A stretch of 64,000 nt of DNA from a virus, in IMG/VR virus record IMGVR_UViG_3300050011_000393, positions 1 to 64,000 of that record; one strand, given 5' to 3'. The translations under genes and the position numbers were made by a program. Of the stretch, positions 4,977 to 11,756 are shown one piece after another. Numbering within the stretch: the stretch's first letter is position 1; each line of letters begins with the position of its first letter. The notes under the pieces are model-generated. The model was not told where the DNA came from and did no database searches. It was given only the letters and a program-made list of their open reading frames with translations.

Positions 4977-5549
4977 ATGAGCACACCGCAATCGCCATTT
5001 CAAGACCACGCATCGCCGATTCTCCAGGGCGAGCCCACAATAAATGATCAGCAACGGTCAGAACTCTGGGATACCTTCCACCAATCCAAGGACCCGAACG
5101 AGTTGGTGCAGAAACTCACGCCGCTGGCTATTCCTGACGATTTGAAGCACAAACTGTTCCAGGCTAAGCAGACATCTATGCCCGCGCCGCCCCCCGTCGA
5201 CAAAGTGACCGAAGCTGTGCAAAAAATGGTCGCGCTGGACCCCAAAGTGTTGGACGTGGCCGAAGCGCATCCGAACCTTCTGAAGGCATTTACGACCGCT
5301 GCCACAACCGAGCCTAAAGCCCCCGCCGAGCCCGCTGCAGCATCCGCGCCAGCAGGGAAGGGTAAGACGGCATCCGCAGCGCCAAAGACGCCCCTGACCC
5401 CTAGGGCCGACGGACAGCCCCATTTCCCGCCTATCCCTGACGGTCACCACCGCGTTTTGAGCAGCAACGGCGGCGTTTATGACGTGCCGCAAGAAAATAT
5501 CGACAAGGCCCGCGAAGCGGACCCGAACCTGCACGTACTGAACCCGTAA
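4977..5549 (+). CDS. Hypothetical Pro-rich protein (possible internal virion protein)
   Basis: Abuts upstream gene; GGAG SD. Confidence 0.55.
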   Translation: MSTPQSPFQDHASPILQGEPTINDQQRSELWDTFHQSKDPNELVQKLTPLAIPDDLKHKLFQAKQTSMPAPPPVDKVTEAVQKMVALDPKVLDVAEAHPNLLKAFTTAATTEPKAPAEPAAASAPAGKGKTASAAPKTPLTPRADGQPHFPPIPDGHHRVLSSNGGVYDVPQENIDKAREADPNLHVLNP

Positions 5550-5562
5550 TTCGGAGACCCTT

Positions 5563-8500
5563 GTGGCTGACGAGACGACCCAGACCCCTGCGCCTGCACC
5601 AGTACCCGACTCGATTCCGATTGACTTGGAGCCGTCTGCTGCTCCTGCATCTATTCCTATCGACTTGAACCCAACATACGACCCGACTCAGGACAAGCGC
5701 GCGCCGTTCCTCAAGACGAATCTAAATCCAACGGGCCCAACCATCCAAGAGGCGCATAAACCTCTGACACAACGCGTCAAAGAAGCAGTCACAGAAAACA
5801 TTCCTGAATTTTCGCAGAGGACTGTCAACGACCCGAAGTACGGCACAAAATCTTTCCTGCCTGACTCAGATGTAATGACTCAGCAGGAACGGAAAGACCT
5901 GCCCGTTGTCGCGGGAGCCATGGACGTGGCCAGTGAGCTGGCTTCCCCTGGGACTATTGGCACCATCGCTGCGACGGCGGGCTTAGGGGAGGCTCCTGCG
6001 ATAGTTTCGAAGGTCGCGTCTGCGTTATTCGCTGGCCAAATTGCCAAATCCGTTTACGACCAGTACCCGGCGCTGCAGGCGGCCGTCGACAAGGCCCAGC
6101 ACGCGAAGTCTCAGCAAGAACACGATGATGCTTTTGCGGATGCGCAGAAAATCCTGACGCACATGGGCGTCGACACCGCGTTCGGGTTGCTGGCGGCGAA
6201 GCACGGCGCGGAGGGCGCGAAAGATTTGCTGGATGCAACCACGGGCAGCGGAGTGCCTGATGAAGCGTCTACCCTGAAAGCGAAGTATCAAGAGAACCAA
6301 ATTGCACCCCGCGCGCCAGAACCGGAAGAGAAACCCGCTGCGCCTGAAGACGTTCATCCCGAGATGAATCGGCAGACGGTCAAGGAACTGCAGCATCTGG
6401 GGTATTCAACGCAACACATTACCAATTTCAATATCACTGAAATTCGCGACATTCTCAAAAATCAAACACCTGCATCTGAATATAAATTTTCCACGACCGA
6501 CCGTCGGTGGAATCCTGATCTACCAAATCCGGCAACAGCCAAGCCCGCTCCTGAGCCAGATAAGTTCGCCGACCAAGGCGGCAAGCTAGTTGGGCCTCAA
6601 CCAGAAACTGAAGCAGCCGCCGAAAAGCCTTCTCAGACCGCCGAAAACGCCACGGAAACCGCAGACCCCGTCGAAGACCTTATCATGTCCGACAAGATTC
6701 AAGGTAAGAAAGTGAAGGGTGCGACACCTAAGGTTGAGCCGACCGAATTGGCGCGCAGCGCGGGGCCGACCCCGAGCGGATTGATTGAGCGTACAACAGG
6801 CGACCCGAAGTCTGACGCCGCCATCAAGGCGGGAGGTGCGGTTCCCGCAGGCACAATGCTTGGGCTAGTCCAGTTTCACGACCCGAAAACAGGCAGCACC
6901 TTGGCGCTAAAGCCCGAGGCGGTCACGCCCGAAGCGGTCCAGCAACATCTCGCCGCGTCCCGCAAAGCCTTTGGCCTGACTCCGGAGCCTGATGCGCTGG
7001 CGGGAGTCGGCGGTAAGTTTGTAGGCCAGCAGCCTGCTGCGGCACCAGCACCTTATCATCCTGACTTACAAAAGGTTATTGATGATAACGGCGGTACGCA
7101 CTCAAGCGCAGCCAAAGCGGTTTCGCCAGACGAAGGGTCTTTTATTACGCCTGACGGAAAATTTGTTAGCGTAAAAGGGACCCATGATATTGCTATTGGC
7201 CGCGCGAATCCAAAAGACCGACCAGAAGGCCGCATCGATAATCGCCCTAGTTTTTTAGATGATACTGGCGCGATACGTACCAGAATGCGTGTTACCAAGG
7301 CGGGTAGTTCATTAAGTGTGACTGTCCCTAAAAACGGGATTTCTCCTGAACAATTAGATGCGTTGCGGCGGTCAGTCCAAGCTATGGGGCCGTACGGGAA
7401 TTTGGTAATAGAACGTTCAGATATCAGCCGAAATAACAGGGACACCGCCAGCACAACGAAAGAGCAGGTAAAGCCCTACCAAGTTGAGGACGCCCTCCGC
7501 GAAATCGGCGCGCATCCCGAGCAGCAAGATATTCTATCCAAAGAACTCCATACTCCGCACAAACAAACATATGGGATGGAAGTCACAGACGCTGAAGGCA
7601 AAGTTCAGAATGTGCCAATCGAAGCGCATTCTGCCAAGCAGGCGCTCAACACCATCGTAAAGAAATTCCCAGACGCGCATCGCTGGCGTTTGGCGACCGC
7701 GCCTGAAGAAAAGGCACCCTCAACTGACTACTCTGTACCTGCAGGCAAGATACAGAAAATGAAAGAGTCGGCAGGACGGTCTGAGATTCACACTATCCGT
7801 CACGAATTAGGACATATATTCGCAGGGGCGGCTGTGGGCATGAAAACTAACGGGATGCTTAGTTCTTCGCACCCCGCTATGCCGAGCGATGCGCGCGCTG
7901 CGGTTGCTTGGAGTTCTGACGGTTTGTATGAGAAGGGGCGCATCAAACCCGACAAAAGACTGGCGGTAATTCAGGCGTCTCTGGGCGGCATCGCCGCCGA
8001 CAAAGTGTTCAATGATACCCCGCGTTCCGCGAATCATAATTTCGATATCCGCGCTGGCGGGGATGGAACAAAAGCCTACGAACTGTTGCGCGACGCAGGG
8101 TATAATCATGCGGACGCGATGGAAAAAATGCACGAGCTAATTGATACAGAAGTCGAACGTCTGAGTCATCCAGCAATCATGTCCGTTATACATGAGAACG
8201 CAGGTGTGCGCGAGCCAGGTTTGTCGCGGCAGTATCACTACAGTCCCGAGCGGCTAAATTCAATCGTGGCGGAAGCCAATAGGAGAATGACCGATGAAAA
8301 ATATACCGAAAAGCGTGACAACGGAGCAGCTAATGGGGCAGTTAACCAAGGACGTGAAGGCGATGTCGCCCGAACAGAAAGCGGAGTTTCGCCTGCAGTT
8401 GGAAGCGAGCCTAAAAAAGAAGGGGTAATCAATGACAACGGAGCAACTGGGTCAGGCGGTTCTGAAATCAGTCCAGCAGATGTCGCCAACGGAAAAAGCG

Positions 8501-11316
8501 GAAGTCCTCAAGGAACTGGAGAAGGCGTTCCAGAAAAAGAAGACCTAGGCCTCGCCAAAGGAGAAGAGGACGGCATAATCTCCGAAGAGAAGATCAAAAA
8601 GGCCAAGGATTCCGAAGAGCCGCCTGAAATTGAGCCGAACAAAAAACTTCAAGCATCTGCGCAGCGATACGCCAAAGCACAAGGCATGGCTCCCATTAAT
8701 CACGAGCCTGTTGAAGCGGACCCTGAGCACGCGCGAGAAATCGCCAAAATTTACGAAGAATCAAAACATGAACCAAATAACCCGCGCGTGAAGGCGGCGT
8801 ACGATGCGTTGAAAGCAGAGACGCTGGCTCAATTCCACCATCTCCGTGACGACCTCGGTTTGAAGTTCAAGCCGCAAGAGGAGGACCCTTACAACTCCGC
8901 AGAACAAATGATGGATGACATCCGCAAGAACAATACTTTGAAAGTTTTCACTGGCTCGAGCACGGGCGAGGATCATCCTCTGTCCGCTATCGCCCCAGGA
9001 ACTGGCGGCCAGTCATACAACACTGTCTTCCGTTGGGTTCATGACGCCATGGGCCATGCTGCTGGCGGAAACGACTTCAGTGAAAACGGCGAGAAGTCTG
9101 CGACCGAAGCGCACGCACAAATGTATAGTGACACCGCGCGCCCCGCGATGCGCAACGAGACCGAAGGCCAGACATCGTGGTTCTTCCACAACCCTGAAGT
9201 TGAATCTGGCGCGAAACAGCCCGGCGACTTTGCGGAACAAAAAGCCGCACTCATTCAAGATGTCTCTCACGACTGGCATGAAACAATTGGTAAGGCTGCA
9301 GCCGAAGACGAAGCGGGCGGCATTAATCCTCGGACAGGAAAATCCGACACGATGGGCATCGGAACCGAGATTTTGCCTGAGTTCCGGCAGCCACTTGGTC
9401 ATGCGCCGACGCCTGCGGATTTCCAGAAGTTTTATGACAGGCATAAAGATTTATTTGATCAGCACCCAGAATTGCGCGTTGGTTTTGATAACATGTCGGC
9501 CGTAGAAGGCGGGCACGAGATCAATATTGGAGCGGTAGGTCCGAACGCCGCGAAGGTCGCCGCGAAGTTAGATCAAAAATCCGCGTTCGATATCAAGAAG
9601 GGTGAAGTCATTCCGACGGGCGGCAGCGGTTTGAAAACTGACTTCAAAGATTATCCTTTGGAAGACCGCATCAAGGATTTGAAGAGCACTCCTACACGCG
9701 CGGATAAACTCGCAGTCCGAGCGCAGCGCACAATCGCGAAGTGGAGACAAAGCGCCGCGTTTGACCCATCGGATGGAGGCACCCCGCAGGCCCCTGCAGC
9801 GCCGCCAGCACCTAAGGGATCGGAGAATATTCCGACAGTCAGCACTCGTACGCCCAGCATCACCGCGAACAAACAAAGCATCGAGAACCACTCGGATAAC
9901 TCACTGACTTCGGATATGCAAGCGGCCGCTGCGGCCCCGGGCTTCCTGAAGAAATTGGCCGACCGTGTCAGCGACATTCCTGGCTTCATTGACCCAGGCG
10001 GAGATGATCACGAAGCGCGCACCAACGCATACATCCGCCATGTCGCGGACAATACGAAATTCGTTCAGAGCAAGGTCACGCCGGAAGAGCATGCGACTGA
10101 TAGTCAGTGGTATCCAGTCGGCGCGCACGAGCGCGGCATTGACGTCGCGAAGAAACACGGGCTAGATGTTCATCAAGCATATGCCATCACGGCGGCACTT
10201 TCACCTTTGACCGACTGGGACCAGAACACCGCCCAGGCGGAGCGCGCGGCGGAAATCTGGAAGAATCAACAAGACACCAAGTTCGATACGAAAATGCGGA
10301 AGGCGGCCGACGAGATTTTGACCGTCCCTGAGATGGAACATTTCCGAAAAATATTCAAGAGTCTCGAAGGAAAAAAACTGGGAGAACTGAAGACGGAAGG
10401 CGAGCAGGCATGGTGGTTACGCCTGTACGAAGAGGGCCACTACGACCGCTCGTTTCAAACATGGAATCCGGATGGCACCTCTGCAGGGCTGGCCATGAAC
10501 TCTGACGGGGTTACTCCGAAGGCAATGAGCTGGAGTTTCCAAAGTCTGATTGAGAACGCTATCAGTATTATGAAGGATGGGTCTCCCGAGAATATCAGCA
10601 AGTCTCTTGGAGAAGGGCACAAAGTTCGAAATTTCTATAACAACCAGTTGTCTCCTGATGACCCGCGTTTTTTAACAGTTGACACACACCAGGTCAATAT
10701 AGGACAATTGAGGCCGATGTCCGGTTCGTATCCCGATGTGGCTGATAACTTTGGTACGCCGACCAACGTGCCGCATGGCTTGAGCGGCACTTATGTGCTG
10801 CACGATGCAGGGACGCGCCTGGCCGCCAAGGAGCTCGGGATCGACATTCCTAGCCGCTTGCAGTCATCCGGCTGGGTGAAGATTCGCAAAGTATTCCCGA
10901 ACAAGTTTAAGACGGAAGAAAATCTCGCGGTCATAGATGCGATATGGAAGGAGCACACAGATGGAAAAATCACAGCCGACGACGCCAGAAACAGAATCTG
11001 GGACTTCGCCGAAGGATGGAACCGAGATGCTGCTCGAAAAGTTCGGAATCCCAGTAACTCGGGAGAATTATCTGAACCTGGCGTTCGCGGGGAAGCCTCC
11101 GCAGCCAATGGATGGGGAGATCGAGGCGATGCTGCCGAGGAAGTTTCGGAACCAGGAGTAGATGACACCTCTTTCGACTTCGGGGCGAACGAGAAGCCTG
11201 TAGTGGCGGCCTCGCGCAAGAGTAAAGGGTCCGAGAAATCATATGCCAAGAAGGCAGCCGAAGTGCAGGGCTTGATCGCAGCCCTACATGATCTCAAGAC
11301 CCCAGGTAAAAAATAA
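5563..11316 (+). CDS. Large polyvalent protein (1917 aa) with M41-like metallopeptidase, second HDxxGH zincin-like domain and C-terminal putative DNA-acting domain
   Basis: TIRHELGH...LGGIAAD...GGDG; FRWVHDAMGH...ETEGQTSW; AITAALSP...KVRNFYNN...LTVDTH; domains joined by disordered linkers. Confidence 0.75.
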   Translation: MADETTQTPAPAPVPDSIPIDLEPSAAPASIPIDLNPTYDPTQDKRAPFLKTNLNPTGPTIQEAHKPLTQRVKEAVTENIPEFSQRTVNDPKYGTKSFLPDSDVMTQQERKDLPVVAGAMDVASELASPGTIGTIAATAGLGEAPAIVSKVASALFAGQIAKSVYDQYPALQAAVDKAQHAKSQQEHDDAFADAQKILTHMGVDTAFGLLAAKHGAEGAKDLLDATTGSGVPDEASTLKAKYQENQIAPRAPEPEEKPAAPEDVHPEMNRQTVKELQHLGYSTQHITNFNITEIRDILKNQTPASEYKFSTTDRRWNPDLPNPATAKPAPEPDKFADQGGKLVGPQPETEAAAEKPSQTAENATETADPVEDLIMSDKIQGKKVKGATPKVEPTELARSAGPTPSGLIERTTGDPKSDAAIKAGGAVPAGTMLGLVQFHDPKTGSTLALKPEAVTPEAVQQHLAASRKAFGLTPEPDALAGVGGKFVGQQPAAAPAPYHPDLQKVIDDNGGTHSSAAKAVSPDEGSFITPDGKFVSVKGTHDIAIGRANPKDRPEGRIDNRPSFLDDTGAIRTRMRVTKAGSSLSVTVPKNGISPEQLDALRRSVQAMGPYGNLVIERSDISRNNRDTASTTKEQVKPYQVEDALREIGAHPEQQDILSKELHTPHKQTYGMEVTDAEGKVQNVPIEAHSAKQALNTIVKKFPDAHRWRLATAPEEKAPSTDYSVPAGKIQKMKESAGRSEIHTIRHELGHIFAGAAVGMKTNGMLSSSHPAMPSDARAAVAWSSDGLYEKGRIKPDKRLAVIQASLGGIAADKVFNDTPRSANHNFDIRAGGDGTKAYELLRDAGYNHADAMEKMHELIDTEVERLSHPAIMSVIHENAGVREPGLSRQYHYSPERLNSIVAEANRRMTDEKYTEKRDNGAANGAVNQGREGDVARTESGVSPAVGSEPKKEGVINDNGATGSGGSEISPADVANGKSGSPQGTGEGVPEKEDLGLAKGEEDGIISEEKIKKAKDSEEPPEIEPNKKLQASAQRYAKAQGMAPINHEPVEADPEHAREIAKIYEESKHEPNNPRVKAAYDALKAETLAQFHHLRDDLGLKFKPQEEDPYNSAEQMMDDIRKNNTLKVFTGSSTGEDHPLSAIAPGTGGQSYNTVFRWVHDAMGHAAGGNDFSENGEKSATEAHAQMYSDTARPAMRNETEGQTSWFFHNPEVESGAKQPGDFAEQKAALIQDVSHDWHETIGKAAAEDEAGGINPRTGKSDTMGIGTEILPEFRQPLGHAPTPADFQKFYDRHKDLFDQHPELRVGFDNMSAVEGGHEINIGAVGPNAAKVAAKLDQKSAFDIKKGEVIPTGGSGLKTDFKDYPLEDRIKDLKSTPTRADKLAVRAQRTIAKWRQSAAFDPSDGGTPQAPAAPPAPKGSENIPTVSTRTPSITANKQSIENHSDNSLTSDMQAAAAAPGFLKKLADRVSDIPGFIDPGGDDHEARTNAYIRHVADNTKFVQSKVTPEEHATDSQWYPVGAHERGIDVAKKHGLDVHQAYAITAALSPLTDWDQNTAQAERAAEIWKNQQDTKFDTKMRKAADEILTVPEMEHFRKIFKSLEGKKLGELKTEGEQAWWLRLYEEGHYDRSFQTWNPDGTSAGLAMNSDGVTPKAMSWSFQSLIENAISIMKDGSPENISKSLGEGHKVRNFYNNQLSPDDPRFLTVDTHQVNIGQLRPMSGSYPDVADNFGTPTNVPHGLSGTYVLHDAGTRLAAKELGIDIPSRLQSSGWVKIRKVFPNKFKTEENLAVIDAIWKEHTDGKITADDARNRIWDFAEGWNRDAARKVRNPSNSGELSEPGVRGEASAANGWGDRGDAAEEVSEPGVDDTSFDFGANEKPVVAASRKSKGSEKSYAKKAAEVQGLIAALHDLKTPGKK
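8294..8428 (+). CDS. Nested +1-frame micro-protein A (44 aa)
   Basis: AGGAG-N8-ATG; MKNIPKSVTTEQLMGQLTKDVKAMSPEQKAEFRLQLEASLKKKG; paralog of 8432..8548. Confidence 0.7.
   Translation: MKNIPKSVTTEQLMGQLTKDVKAMSPEQKAEFRLQLEASLKKKG
8432..8548 (+). CDS. Nested +1-frame micro-protein B (38 aa)
   Basis: AAGGGG-N6-ATG; MTTEQLGQAVLKSVQQMSPTEKAEVLKELEKAFQKKKT. Confidence 0.7.
   Translation: MTTEQLGQAVLKSVQQMSPTEKAEVLKELEKAFQKKKT
10961..11161 (+). CDS. Nested +1-frame small protein C (66 aa)
   Basis: AAGGAG-N7-ATG; globular-looking LLEKFGIPVTRENYLNLAFAGKPPQPMDGEIEAMLP while the main frame is low complexity. Confidence 0.65.
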   Translation: MEKSQPTTPETESGTSPKDGTEMLLEKFGIPVTRENYLNLAFAGKPPQPMDGEIEAMLPRKFRNQE

Positions 11317-11756
11317 TGACTCAGGCCCAAAAAGATCGAGCTAAAGATCTCAGTCTTCAGCGCAAGTACGGCATCACCCTTATCCGACAAAACGAAATCA
11401 GAGCAGAACAGAACAATCGATGCAAAACCTGCGGAGTAGAGTTCACCGCAGAGAATCCTGCCTGTACCGACCATTTTCACTTTCGCATTACGACACGAAA
11501 ACTTGGTAAAAAGAACTGGGAAGCTGTTAGCATGGACGAACGCGGGGTCGTGAGCGCAATCGTCATCTCAGGTCGTCTTACCCAGAAAGCGGCGCGGGCA
11601 GATATGCGTGGCGTTATGGTCCCTCGCTCGGTGCGCGGGCTCCTCTGCAGGAAATGTAATCGCGGACTCGGATATATCGAGCGATTCTTCGACGCCGCCC
11701 GCCATCCCGAAAATCTCCTCCCTGTCATCGAATATTTGAAATCCCGCTTGACATAG
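11316..11756 (+). CDS. Endonuclease VII-like homing endonuclease
   Basis: RKYGIT...QNNRCKTC...TDHFH...VRGLLCRKCNRGLG, with an insertion between motifs. Confidence 0.8.
   Translation: MTQAQKDRAKDLSLQRKYGITLIRQNEIRAEQNNRCKTCGVEFTAENPACTDHFHFRITTRKLGKKNWEAVSMDERGVVSAIVISGRLTQKAARADMRGVMVPRSVRGLLCRKCNRGLGYIERFFDAARHPENLLPVIEYLKSRLT

Follow-up and report, generated by a model that had tools for sequence, protein, structure and literature searches.

Two small open reading frames (ORFs), designated A and B, were found nested in tandem within a giant phage ORF, directly after the part of it that encodes a zinc-peptidase domain. They lie in a stretch of 64,000 nucleotides (nt), below called the window, which covers positions 1 to 64,000 of the IMG/VR virus record IMGVR_UViG_3300050011_000393. 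The full record is 96,667 base pairs long and estimated to be 97% complete. A and B are complete ORFs in the +1 frame of the giant ORF, each with its own start codon. The frame of the giant ORF itself, referred to as the main frame, is read across both of them as a linker rich in G, E, S, A and N. An original prediction, made from the letters of the window, had proposed two tandem paralogous micro-proteins at this position, hidden in the +1 frame of a low-complexity main-frame region and each preceded by a Shine-Dalgarno sequence. Two such ORFs with their Shine-Dalgarno sequences were present 3 nt apart as described, and the composition of the linker agreed with the low complexity claimed for the main frame. 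The features are listed in Table 1.

Table 1. Positions in the window of the giant gene, its peptidase domain and the small genes nested in it
Feature	Position	Strand	Basis and remarks
Host gene, giant multidomain polyvalent-type ORF, 1917 amino acids (aa)	5563-11316	+	Main frame read through the whole overlap; open in all relatives against expectation
HExxH (HELGH) zinc-peptidase domain, predicted FtsH/M41-like fold	7708-8292	+	Alignments, AlphaFold2 model, Foldseek; conserved Arg-Arg at the C-terminus
Shine-Dalgarno sequence AGGAGA for ORF A	8281-8286	+	Made of the main-frame codons AGG AGA (Arg-Arg); 7 nt before ATG
Putative nested gene A, 44 aa	8294-8428	+	+1 frame; motifs TTEQL and MSPE-KAE, basic tail; 75.6 bits to family profile
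Shine-Dalgarno-like sequence GAAGGGG for ORF B	8419-8425	+	From sequence; 6 nt before ATG
Putative nested gene B, 38 aa	8432-8548	+	+1 frame; second copy of the A domain; 64.9 bits to family profile
Second nested small gene, VTRENYL-type domain	10937/10961-11161	+	+1 frame, after DUF7178; ATG at 10961 behind AAGGAG

The stop codon of A (TAA, 8426-8428) is located immediately before the three nucleotides that separate it from the ATG of B. At an offset of 117 nt, A and B aligned without gaps, and the ATG of B aligned with a GTG (Val) codon of A. When all three frames were aligned, 17 of 36 residues were identical in the +1 frame (BLOSUM62 score 73), with different codons used for nine of them, compared to ten of 36 in the main frame, all ten with identical codons (score 36); the third frame contained stops. 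The gap-free alignment with synonymous differences in the +1 frame described in the original prediction was thereby reproduced. Tandem Repeats Finder reported no repeat in the A/B region, because the DNA identity of the two copies is only about 52%. The nearest relative of A was the copy in the related locus L007 (66% identity in aa, 71% in nt) and that of B was the single copy in L009 (72% aa, 71% nt), while A and B were 47% (aa) and 53% (nt) identical to each other. A recent tandem duplication was rejected, each copy being closer to that of another phage than to its neighbour. Paralogy as such was upheld; judged by their sequences, A and B are old paralogues or were joined by recombination between variant linkers. 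Two copies were seen in the window only, among the 19 distinct versions of the locus described below. A promoter and terminator scan of 7600-8900 gave two weak promoter-like sites and no terminator, and a separate transcript for A and B is therefore unsupported.

The upstream domain had been predicted to be an M41-like peptidase. The HELGH motif was invariant in the peptidase alignment, and the AlphaFold2 model of the domain had a predicted local distance difference test score (pLDDT) of 91.6. The top Foldseek matches of this model were all FtsH or related m-AAA/i-AAA proteases (probability about 1.0, expectation value (E) 1.6e-3, TM score about 0.5). No match to a Pfam family or to a PDB sequence was obtained for the domain, and no AAA+ ATPase module was found with it. 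The M41 likeness thus holds at the level of the fold: on its model the domain is FtsH-like, and by sequence profile it is not a member of peptidase family M41. A related giant ORF, L001, carries a different FtsH-like peptidase (HEAGH) at its extreme C-terminus (about 5350-5931), which is not followed by a nested ORF of the TTEQL type. Since this HEAGH peptidase lacks the nested ORF, the small gene appears to go with one peptidase subfamily and not with any HExxH domain.

Conservation and selection in the overlapping frames

Relatives of the locus were collected by searches with the peptidase only, which were blind to the small ORF and gave 10 distinct viral loci and 16 metagenome loci, and by searches with the small peptide, which gave further viral contigs. 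Removal of duplicates left 19 distinct versions. A homologous +1-frame ORF of 39-55 codons was present right after the conserved Arg-Arg in all 19, including the 15 evaluable loci from the peptidase-only searches. TTEQL, a motif of the MSPEEKAE type and a basic tail were common to all nested ORFs. In every locus the ATG was preceded at 5-9 nt by a ribosome-binding site of the GGAG type, and the main frame was open through the nested ORF. The original prediction had named +1-frame stops, or loss of the Shine-Dalgarno sequence or ATG in homologous loci, as the observations that would speak against it; none of the 19 showed them. The +1 ORF was retained down to 36% peptidase identity (L023, L024). 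A remote relative of the peptidase (HEDGH; hhalign probability 94.7%) was seen in L030 (3-1520), which represents a group of five identical viral loci and has about 200 extra residues between the peptidase and the conserved junction helix with the nested ORF.

The domains that follow the peptidase and the small ORF vary from locus to locus, and the close relatives of the giant gene in L001 and L003 have neither the peptidase block at this position nor the small ORF. Peptidase and small ORF therefore move jointly, as a single module. All occurrences of the A/B domain in IMG/VR contigs were nested ones, directly behind the peptidase module. Neither the overlap region nor A nor the second nested gene listed in Table 1 had a relative among GenBank phages in blastn and tblastn searches.

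Selection was measured as the ratio of nonsynonymous to synonymous differences per site (pN/pS) for each frame of a gap-free core of 32 codons, pooled over all pairs. For the +1 frame the ratio was 0.50, at 49% aa identity, with pairwise values from 0.31 to 0.52; the main frame gave 1.76, at 32% identity, and the third frame 0.86. Compared to their nearest orthologues, A and B gave 0.40 and 0.35 in the +1 frame and more than 1.5 in the main frame. The claim that selection is visible in the +1 frame is well supported by these values. They also bear on the idea that a purine-rich linker gave rise to the ORFs by chance, or that they are only a translational device in which the sequence of the peptide is irrelevant. 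A +1 frame is often open by chance in DNA of this composition (P up to 0.83 per locus), and the giant gene contains further +1 ORFs, of 38-154 aa. Conservation at the level of the amino acids together with synonymous change is not what such ORFs would give, nor are hundreds of profile homologues in other contexts with E down to 1e-17, and this explanation is considered extremely improbable.

The main frame was examined by recoding each small protein at random with local codon usage. It stayed open in 1.4-28% of the trials per locus (P 0.014-0.28), and the product of the per-locus probabilities was 10^-24.5, a value that overstates the independence of the loci. As the main frame is open in all loci although recoding usually closes it, it is also selected to be read. 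The result is likewise relevant to the suggestion that the 1917-aa ORF is not one gene and that the main frame over 8290-8550 is an untranslated spacer, open by chance. The main-frame sequence is of low complexity and poorly conserved, as its pN/pS of 1.76 illustrates, which could be expected of a spacer. A spacer would hardly have stayed open in 19 of 19 loci when recoding closes it in 72-99% of the trials per locus. Furthermore, no conserved start codon or ribosome-binding site for a downstream gene was present, and the same junction is continuous in L001 and L003. A split gene at this position is thus hardly credible.

The conserved Arg-Arg that ends the peptidase domain is encoded by AGR-AGR in 16 of 18 loci and by CGG-AGA in the other two. 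AGR codons make up 20% of the nearby Arg codons, so that AGR-AGR would be expected in 4% of cases per locus (binomial P about 1e-20). By this codon choice, the nucleotides of the ribosome-binding site are selected beyond the protein they encode. Tandem rare AGR codons are known to promote +1 shifts in E. coli, and the same codons could be a site of programmed +1 ribosomal frameshifting at AGG-AGA, yielding a fusion of the peptidase with the small domain. In line with this, the 13 codons that precede the ATG are free of +1-frame stops in seven loci. Such a stop was however present in 12 of the 19 ORFs, counting A and B of the window separately, and in seven of these 12 it lies only 1-2 codons before the ATG. 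In these 12 the shifted frame is not open as a frameshift site would need it to be, and a programmed +1 shift was rejected as the conserved mechanism. The ATG and its spacing of 5-9 nt from GGAG, conserved in all loci, and the location of copy B behind the stop codon of A also argue against a fusion product, and frameshifting is regarded as very unlikely.

The small-protein family and a second nested gene

A family profile was built from 13 nested peptides and run against 1.84 billion representative proteins. The number of cluster representatives matched was 280 at E<=1e-3, of which 59 reached E<=1e-10. Among the top 150 family members, half had a length of 67 aa or less; in other architectures the domain formed the N-terminus of proteins of 389 and 548 aa or the C-terminus of proteins of about 100-180 aa, or was present in 2-3 copies per chain. 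All members that had a name were called 'hypothetical protein'. Nothing above threshold was found for the A/B domain in Pfam or PHROGs, no PDB sequence matched, and the ESM Atlas gave no usable match. The description of A and B as hidden micro-proteins is accordingly accurate in that they are nested and unannotated, and has to be modified in that they are not private to this locus: their family is large and unnamed, and it has members that are not nested.

An AlphaFold2 model of a fused, two-domain family member (P0033) had a mean pLDDT of 83 and a predicted template modelling score (pTM) of 0.49. In this model the A/B domain consists of two helices, which start at TTEQL and at SPEEK, and the two motifs look like helix N-caps. 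For the A/B-type peptide the prediction is a hairpin of two helices with a tail rich in lysine, which bears out the hairpin anticipated from the window. Fold searches with the P0033 model gave no meaningful match to a solved fold (Foldseek E>=1.5; VIA-align Z<=3.8). A C-terminal ending of the type [V/I/L][N/Q/H] was seen in 58 of the 150 best family members, with Asn as the last residue in 53, and was often preceded by a motif like MPVS-W. The pattern suggests a conserved C-terminal signal. A and B of the window are without this ending. A short motif, D..FL...GI, was noted in nine family members.

The comparisons between loci show that both frames are under selection, that the ribosome-binding site and start are conserved, and that the family exists on its own. 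It is quite probable that A and B are genuine genes that encode proteins, lie nested in the giant gene and are each initiated from their own Shine-Dalgarno sequence and ATG, and the DNA of the overlap very probably encodes two proteins at once. A and B would be initiated independently on the mRNA of the giant gene, with B possibly coupled to the termination of A just upstream, while ribosomes in the main frame would translate this DNA as a flexible linker rich in G, E, S and A. Of the two readings, that of the small domain is probably the older, since the family is widespread and also exists un-nested. The fusion of neighbouring genes into the giant ORF may then have overlaid the linker reading on a small gene that was already there.

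Some observations count against this account, or against its association with the peptidase. The per-locus probability products ignore shared ancestry, though saturation is nearly reached at synonymous sites (pS 0.55-0.88). That the +1 frame is open is by itself weak evidence (P 0.16-0.83 per locus, product 10^-6.2). The short database matches include nested copies, among them P0002, which is the ORF of L030. Finally, the small domain is also found without a peptidase, either alone, fused to a VTRENYL-type domain, or fused to zinc ribbons, and because of these occurrences the small protein may not act on the peptidase at all.

The VTRENYL-type domain is that of the second small gene nested in the giant ORF. 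This ORF was kept in L002, L007, L011, L012 and L013, so that both kinds of nested gene are found in one giant gene in these five loci as well as in the window. No Pfam or PHROGs family above threshold was found for its product. The gene had 116 relatives in viral contigs, nearly all of them without the A/B domain. In 59 of 80 kept loci it lies in the +1 frame of an ORF of at least 250 aa, usually at the 3' end of that ORF, and in the remaining 21 it has no such overlapping frame. The host ORF carried DUF7178 in all seven diverse loci tested, so that a second type of domain seems, independently of the first, to be trailed by a small gene of its own.

At least 11 of the best 150 family members had the A/B domain fused to the VTRENYL-type domain, in either order. 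Examples of fusion or adjacency are P0016, P0023, P0033, P0040, P0069 and P0120, as well as L056 (3614-4392). The latter is a metagenome-assembled genome (MAG) of Acidobacteriota, in which the two small domains are encoded by adjacent genes with a stop/start overlap, TGATG, and no overlapping giant ORF. The A/B domain is here the C-terminus of a 197-aa protein. It was found in one of 201 genomes of that bacterial class, and the genes neighbouring the pair gave no Pfam family. Fusion and adjacency would together amount to a link of the Rosetta-stone kind between the two types of small gene nested in the window, and they suggest a joint action of the two small domains, or free copies that serve as orphan antidotes.

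An explanation that departs from a role on the peptidase is that the genes are real, but that the small protein works with the VTRENYL-type protein as a two-part module. Such a module could serve as a chaperone or adaptor, be directed at the host, or supply antidotes to the domains of the giant protein, in which case orphan fused copies in other genomes would protect against incoming phages. The fusions in either order, the TGATG overlap and the nesting of both genes in the same giant gene in six loci fit this explanation, and the single occurrence among 201 genomes would fit a mobile origin. It is difficult to reconcile with the finding that, in IMG/VR contigs, the A/B domain stands only directly behind the peptidase module. 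Neither can the two be obligate partners, as more than 100 viral contigs have the VTRENYL-type gene and nearly all of these are without the A/B domain. The pTM of the fusion model moreover indicates that the packing of the two domains is not fixed by the model. A two-part module of this kind is considered rather unlikely.

Possible function within a polyvalent protein

Besides the HELGH peptidase, the giant ORF contains a domain common to many phage proteins (phrog_3170; residues 1023-1246) and DUF7178 (Pfam; residues 1491-1588), the three being mutually unrelated. Polyvalent proteins of phages and conjugative elements were described by Iyer, Burroughs, Anand, de Souza and Aravind in 2017 (PMC5512222), who proposed that zincin-like metallopeptidases process the polypeptide. 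With several unrelated domains in one phage polypeptide, a zincin-like peptidase among them, the giant ORF is a polyvalent protein by definition. It resembles those described in being a giant multidomain phage protein with a HExxH peptidase, which is here FtsH-like by fold. A term search of PMC5512222 gave no mention of overlapping genes or linkers, and its sole mention of a 'reading frame' was unrelated. No paper was found that describes small genes nested in the linkers of polyvalent proteins.

The small gene is strictly paired with the peptidase module, just as the second small gene is paired with DUF7178, and this suggests that the small protein is a cognate partner of the module. Returning to this possibility, the protein could be made in the producing cell and act as an inhibitor or regulator of the peptidase or as a helper in folding or packaging. 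We put this forward tentatively, as a plausible reading of the pairing. The small protein would then control the peptidase thought to process polyvalent proteins. A more far-reaching idea is that polyvalent proteins are built from cassettes of a domain plus its cognate small gene, that the small genes were overprinted as linkers at fusion, and that free or fused copies are orphan antidotes against the injected effector domains of incoming phages, which would amount to superinfection immunity. This extension is speculative and seems unlikely as a whole.

Comparison with known systems gave partial likenesses. The embedded Rz/Rz1 spanin genes of phage lambda (PMC5295617, PMC6139136) show the same layout: a larger phage gene encloses the whole of a small one, which is on the same strand, is read in the +1 frame and is served by a ribosome-binding site of its own. 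The products of Rz and Rz1 work together. Unlike Rz1, A and B have no lipoprotein signal and are located outside a lysis cassette. An Rz1-type o-spanin was rejected as a candidate because A and B contain neither Cys nor a hydrophobic signal. The host gene also differs, encoding a multidomain protein of 1917 aa in which the overlap covers an interdomain linker instead of a functional domain, and the small gene is present in two tandem copies. The ShiLan insertion in phage DNA methylase genes (PMC11855218) shares with A and B a stop-free, in-frame host reading and a hidden gene in another frame. ShiLan is however a homing element with an out-of-frame HNH endonuclease, whereas the hidden product here is a predicted helical hairpin of 40 aa, not a nuclease, that travels with a peptidase domain. 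In polymorphic toxin-immunity pairs, a specific small gene always stands directly after a specific enzymatic domain regardless of the surroundings, with orphan or fused copies elsewhere, similar to the arrangement of A and B. These are overprinted on the host ORF and do not follow its stop codon, and the likeness is one of strict adjacency.

If the nested genes are what they appear to be, several consequences follow. Gene callers pass over ORFs of the A/B type, so that phage annotation misses most of a conserved family that comprises at least 280 clusters. In giant phage proteins a 'floppy linker' can be dual-coding and its hidden frame can be under more constraint than the visible one, which alters how such linkers should be read and engineered. 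The pairing of a small protein with a protease domain is concrete and could explain how packaged or injected polyvalent proteins are restrained. The same layout is seen behind DUF7178 in many uncultivated phages.

Neighbouring genes and other reading frames

The giant ORF is preceded by a gene for the major head protein and followed by genes for an endonuclease VII-like protein, a DNA transfer protein, a recombinase and a DNA polymerase. A further +1-frame ORF, of 154 aa, was noted at 9041-9505 (+), in the most conserved part of the giant gene. Its counterparts are open in L001 (187 aa) and L002 (193 aa) and shortened to 79 aa in L003. The product is rich in R, S, T and P, and has the appearance of off-frame noise.

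The first base of the endonuclease VII-like gene (11316-11756, +) is the last base of the stop codon of the giant ORF. The gene may encode a homing-type endonuclease beside a shuffled giant gene. A Cys/His-rich ORF is located at the matching place in L001.

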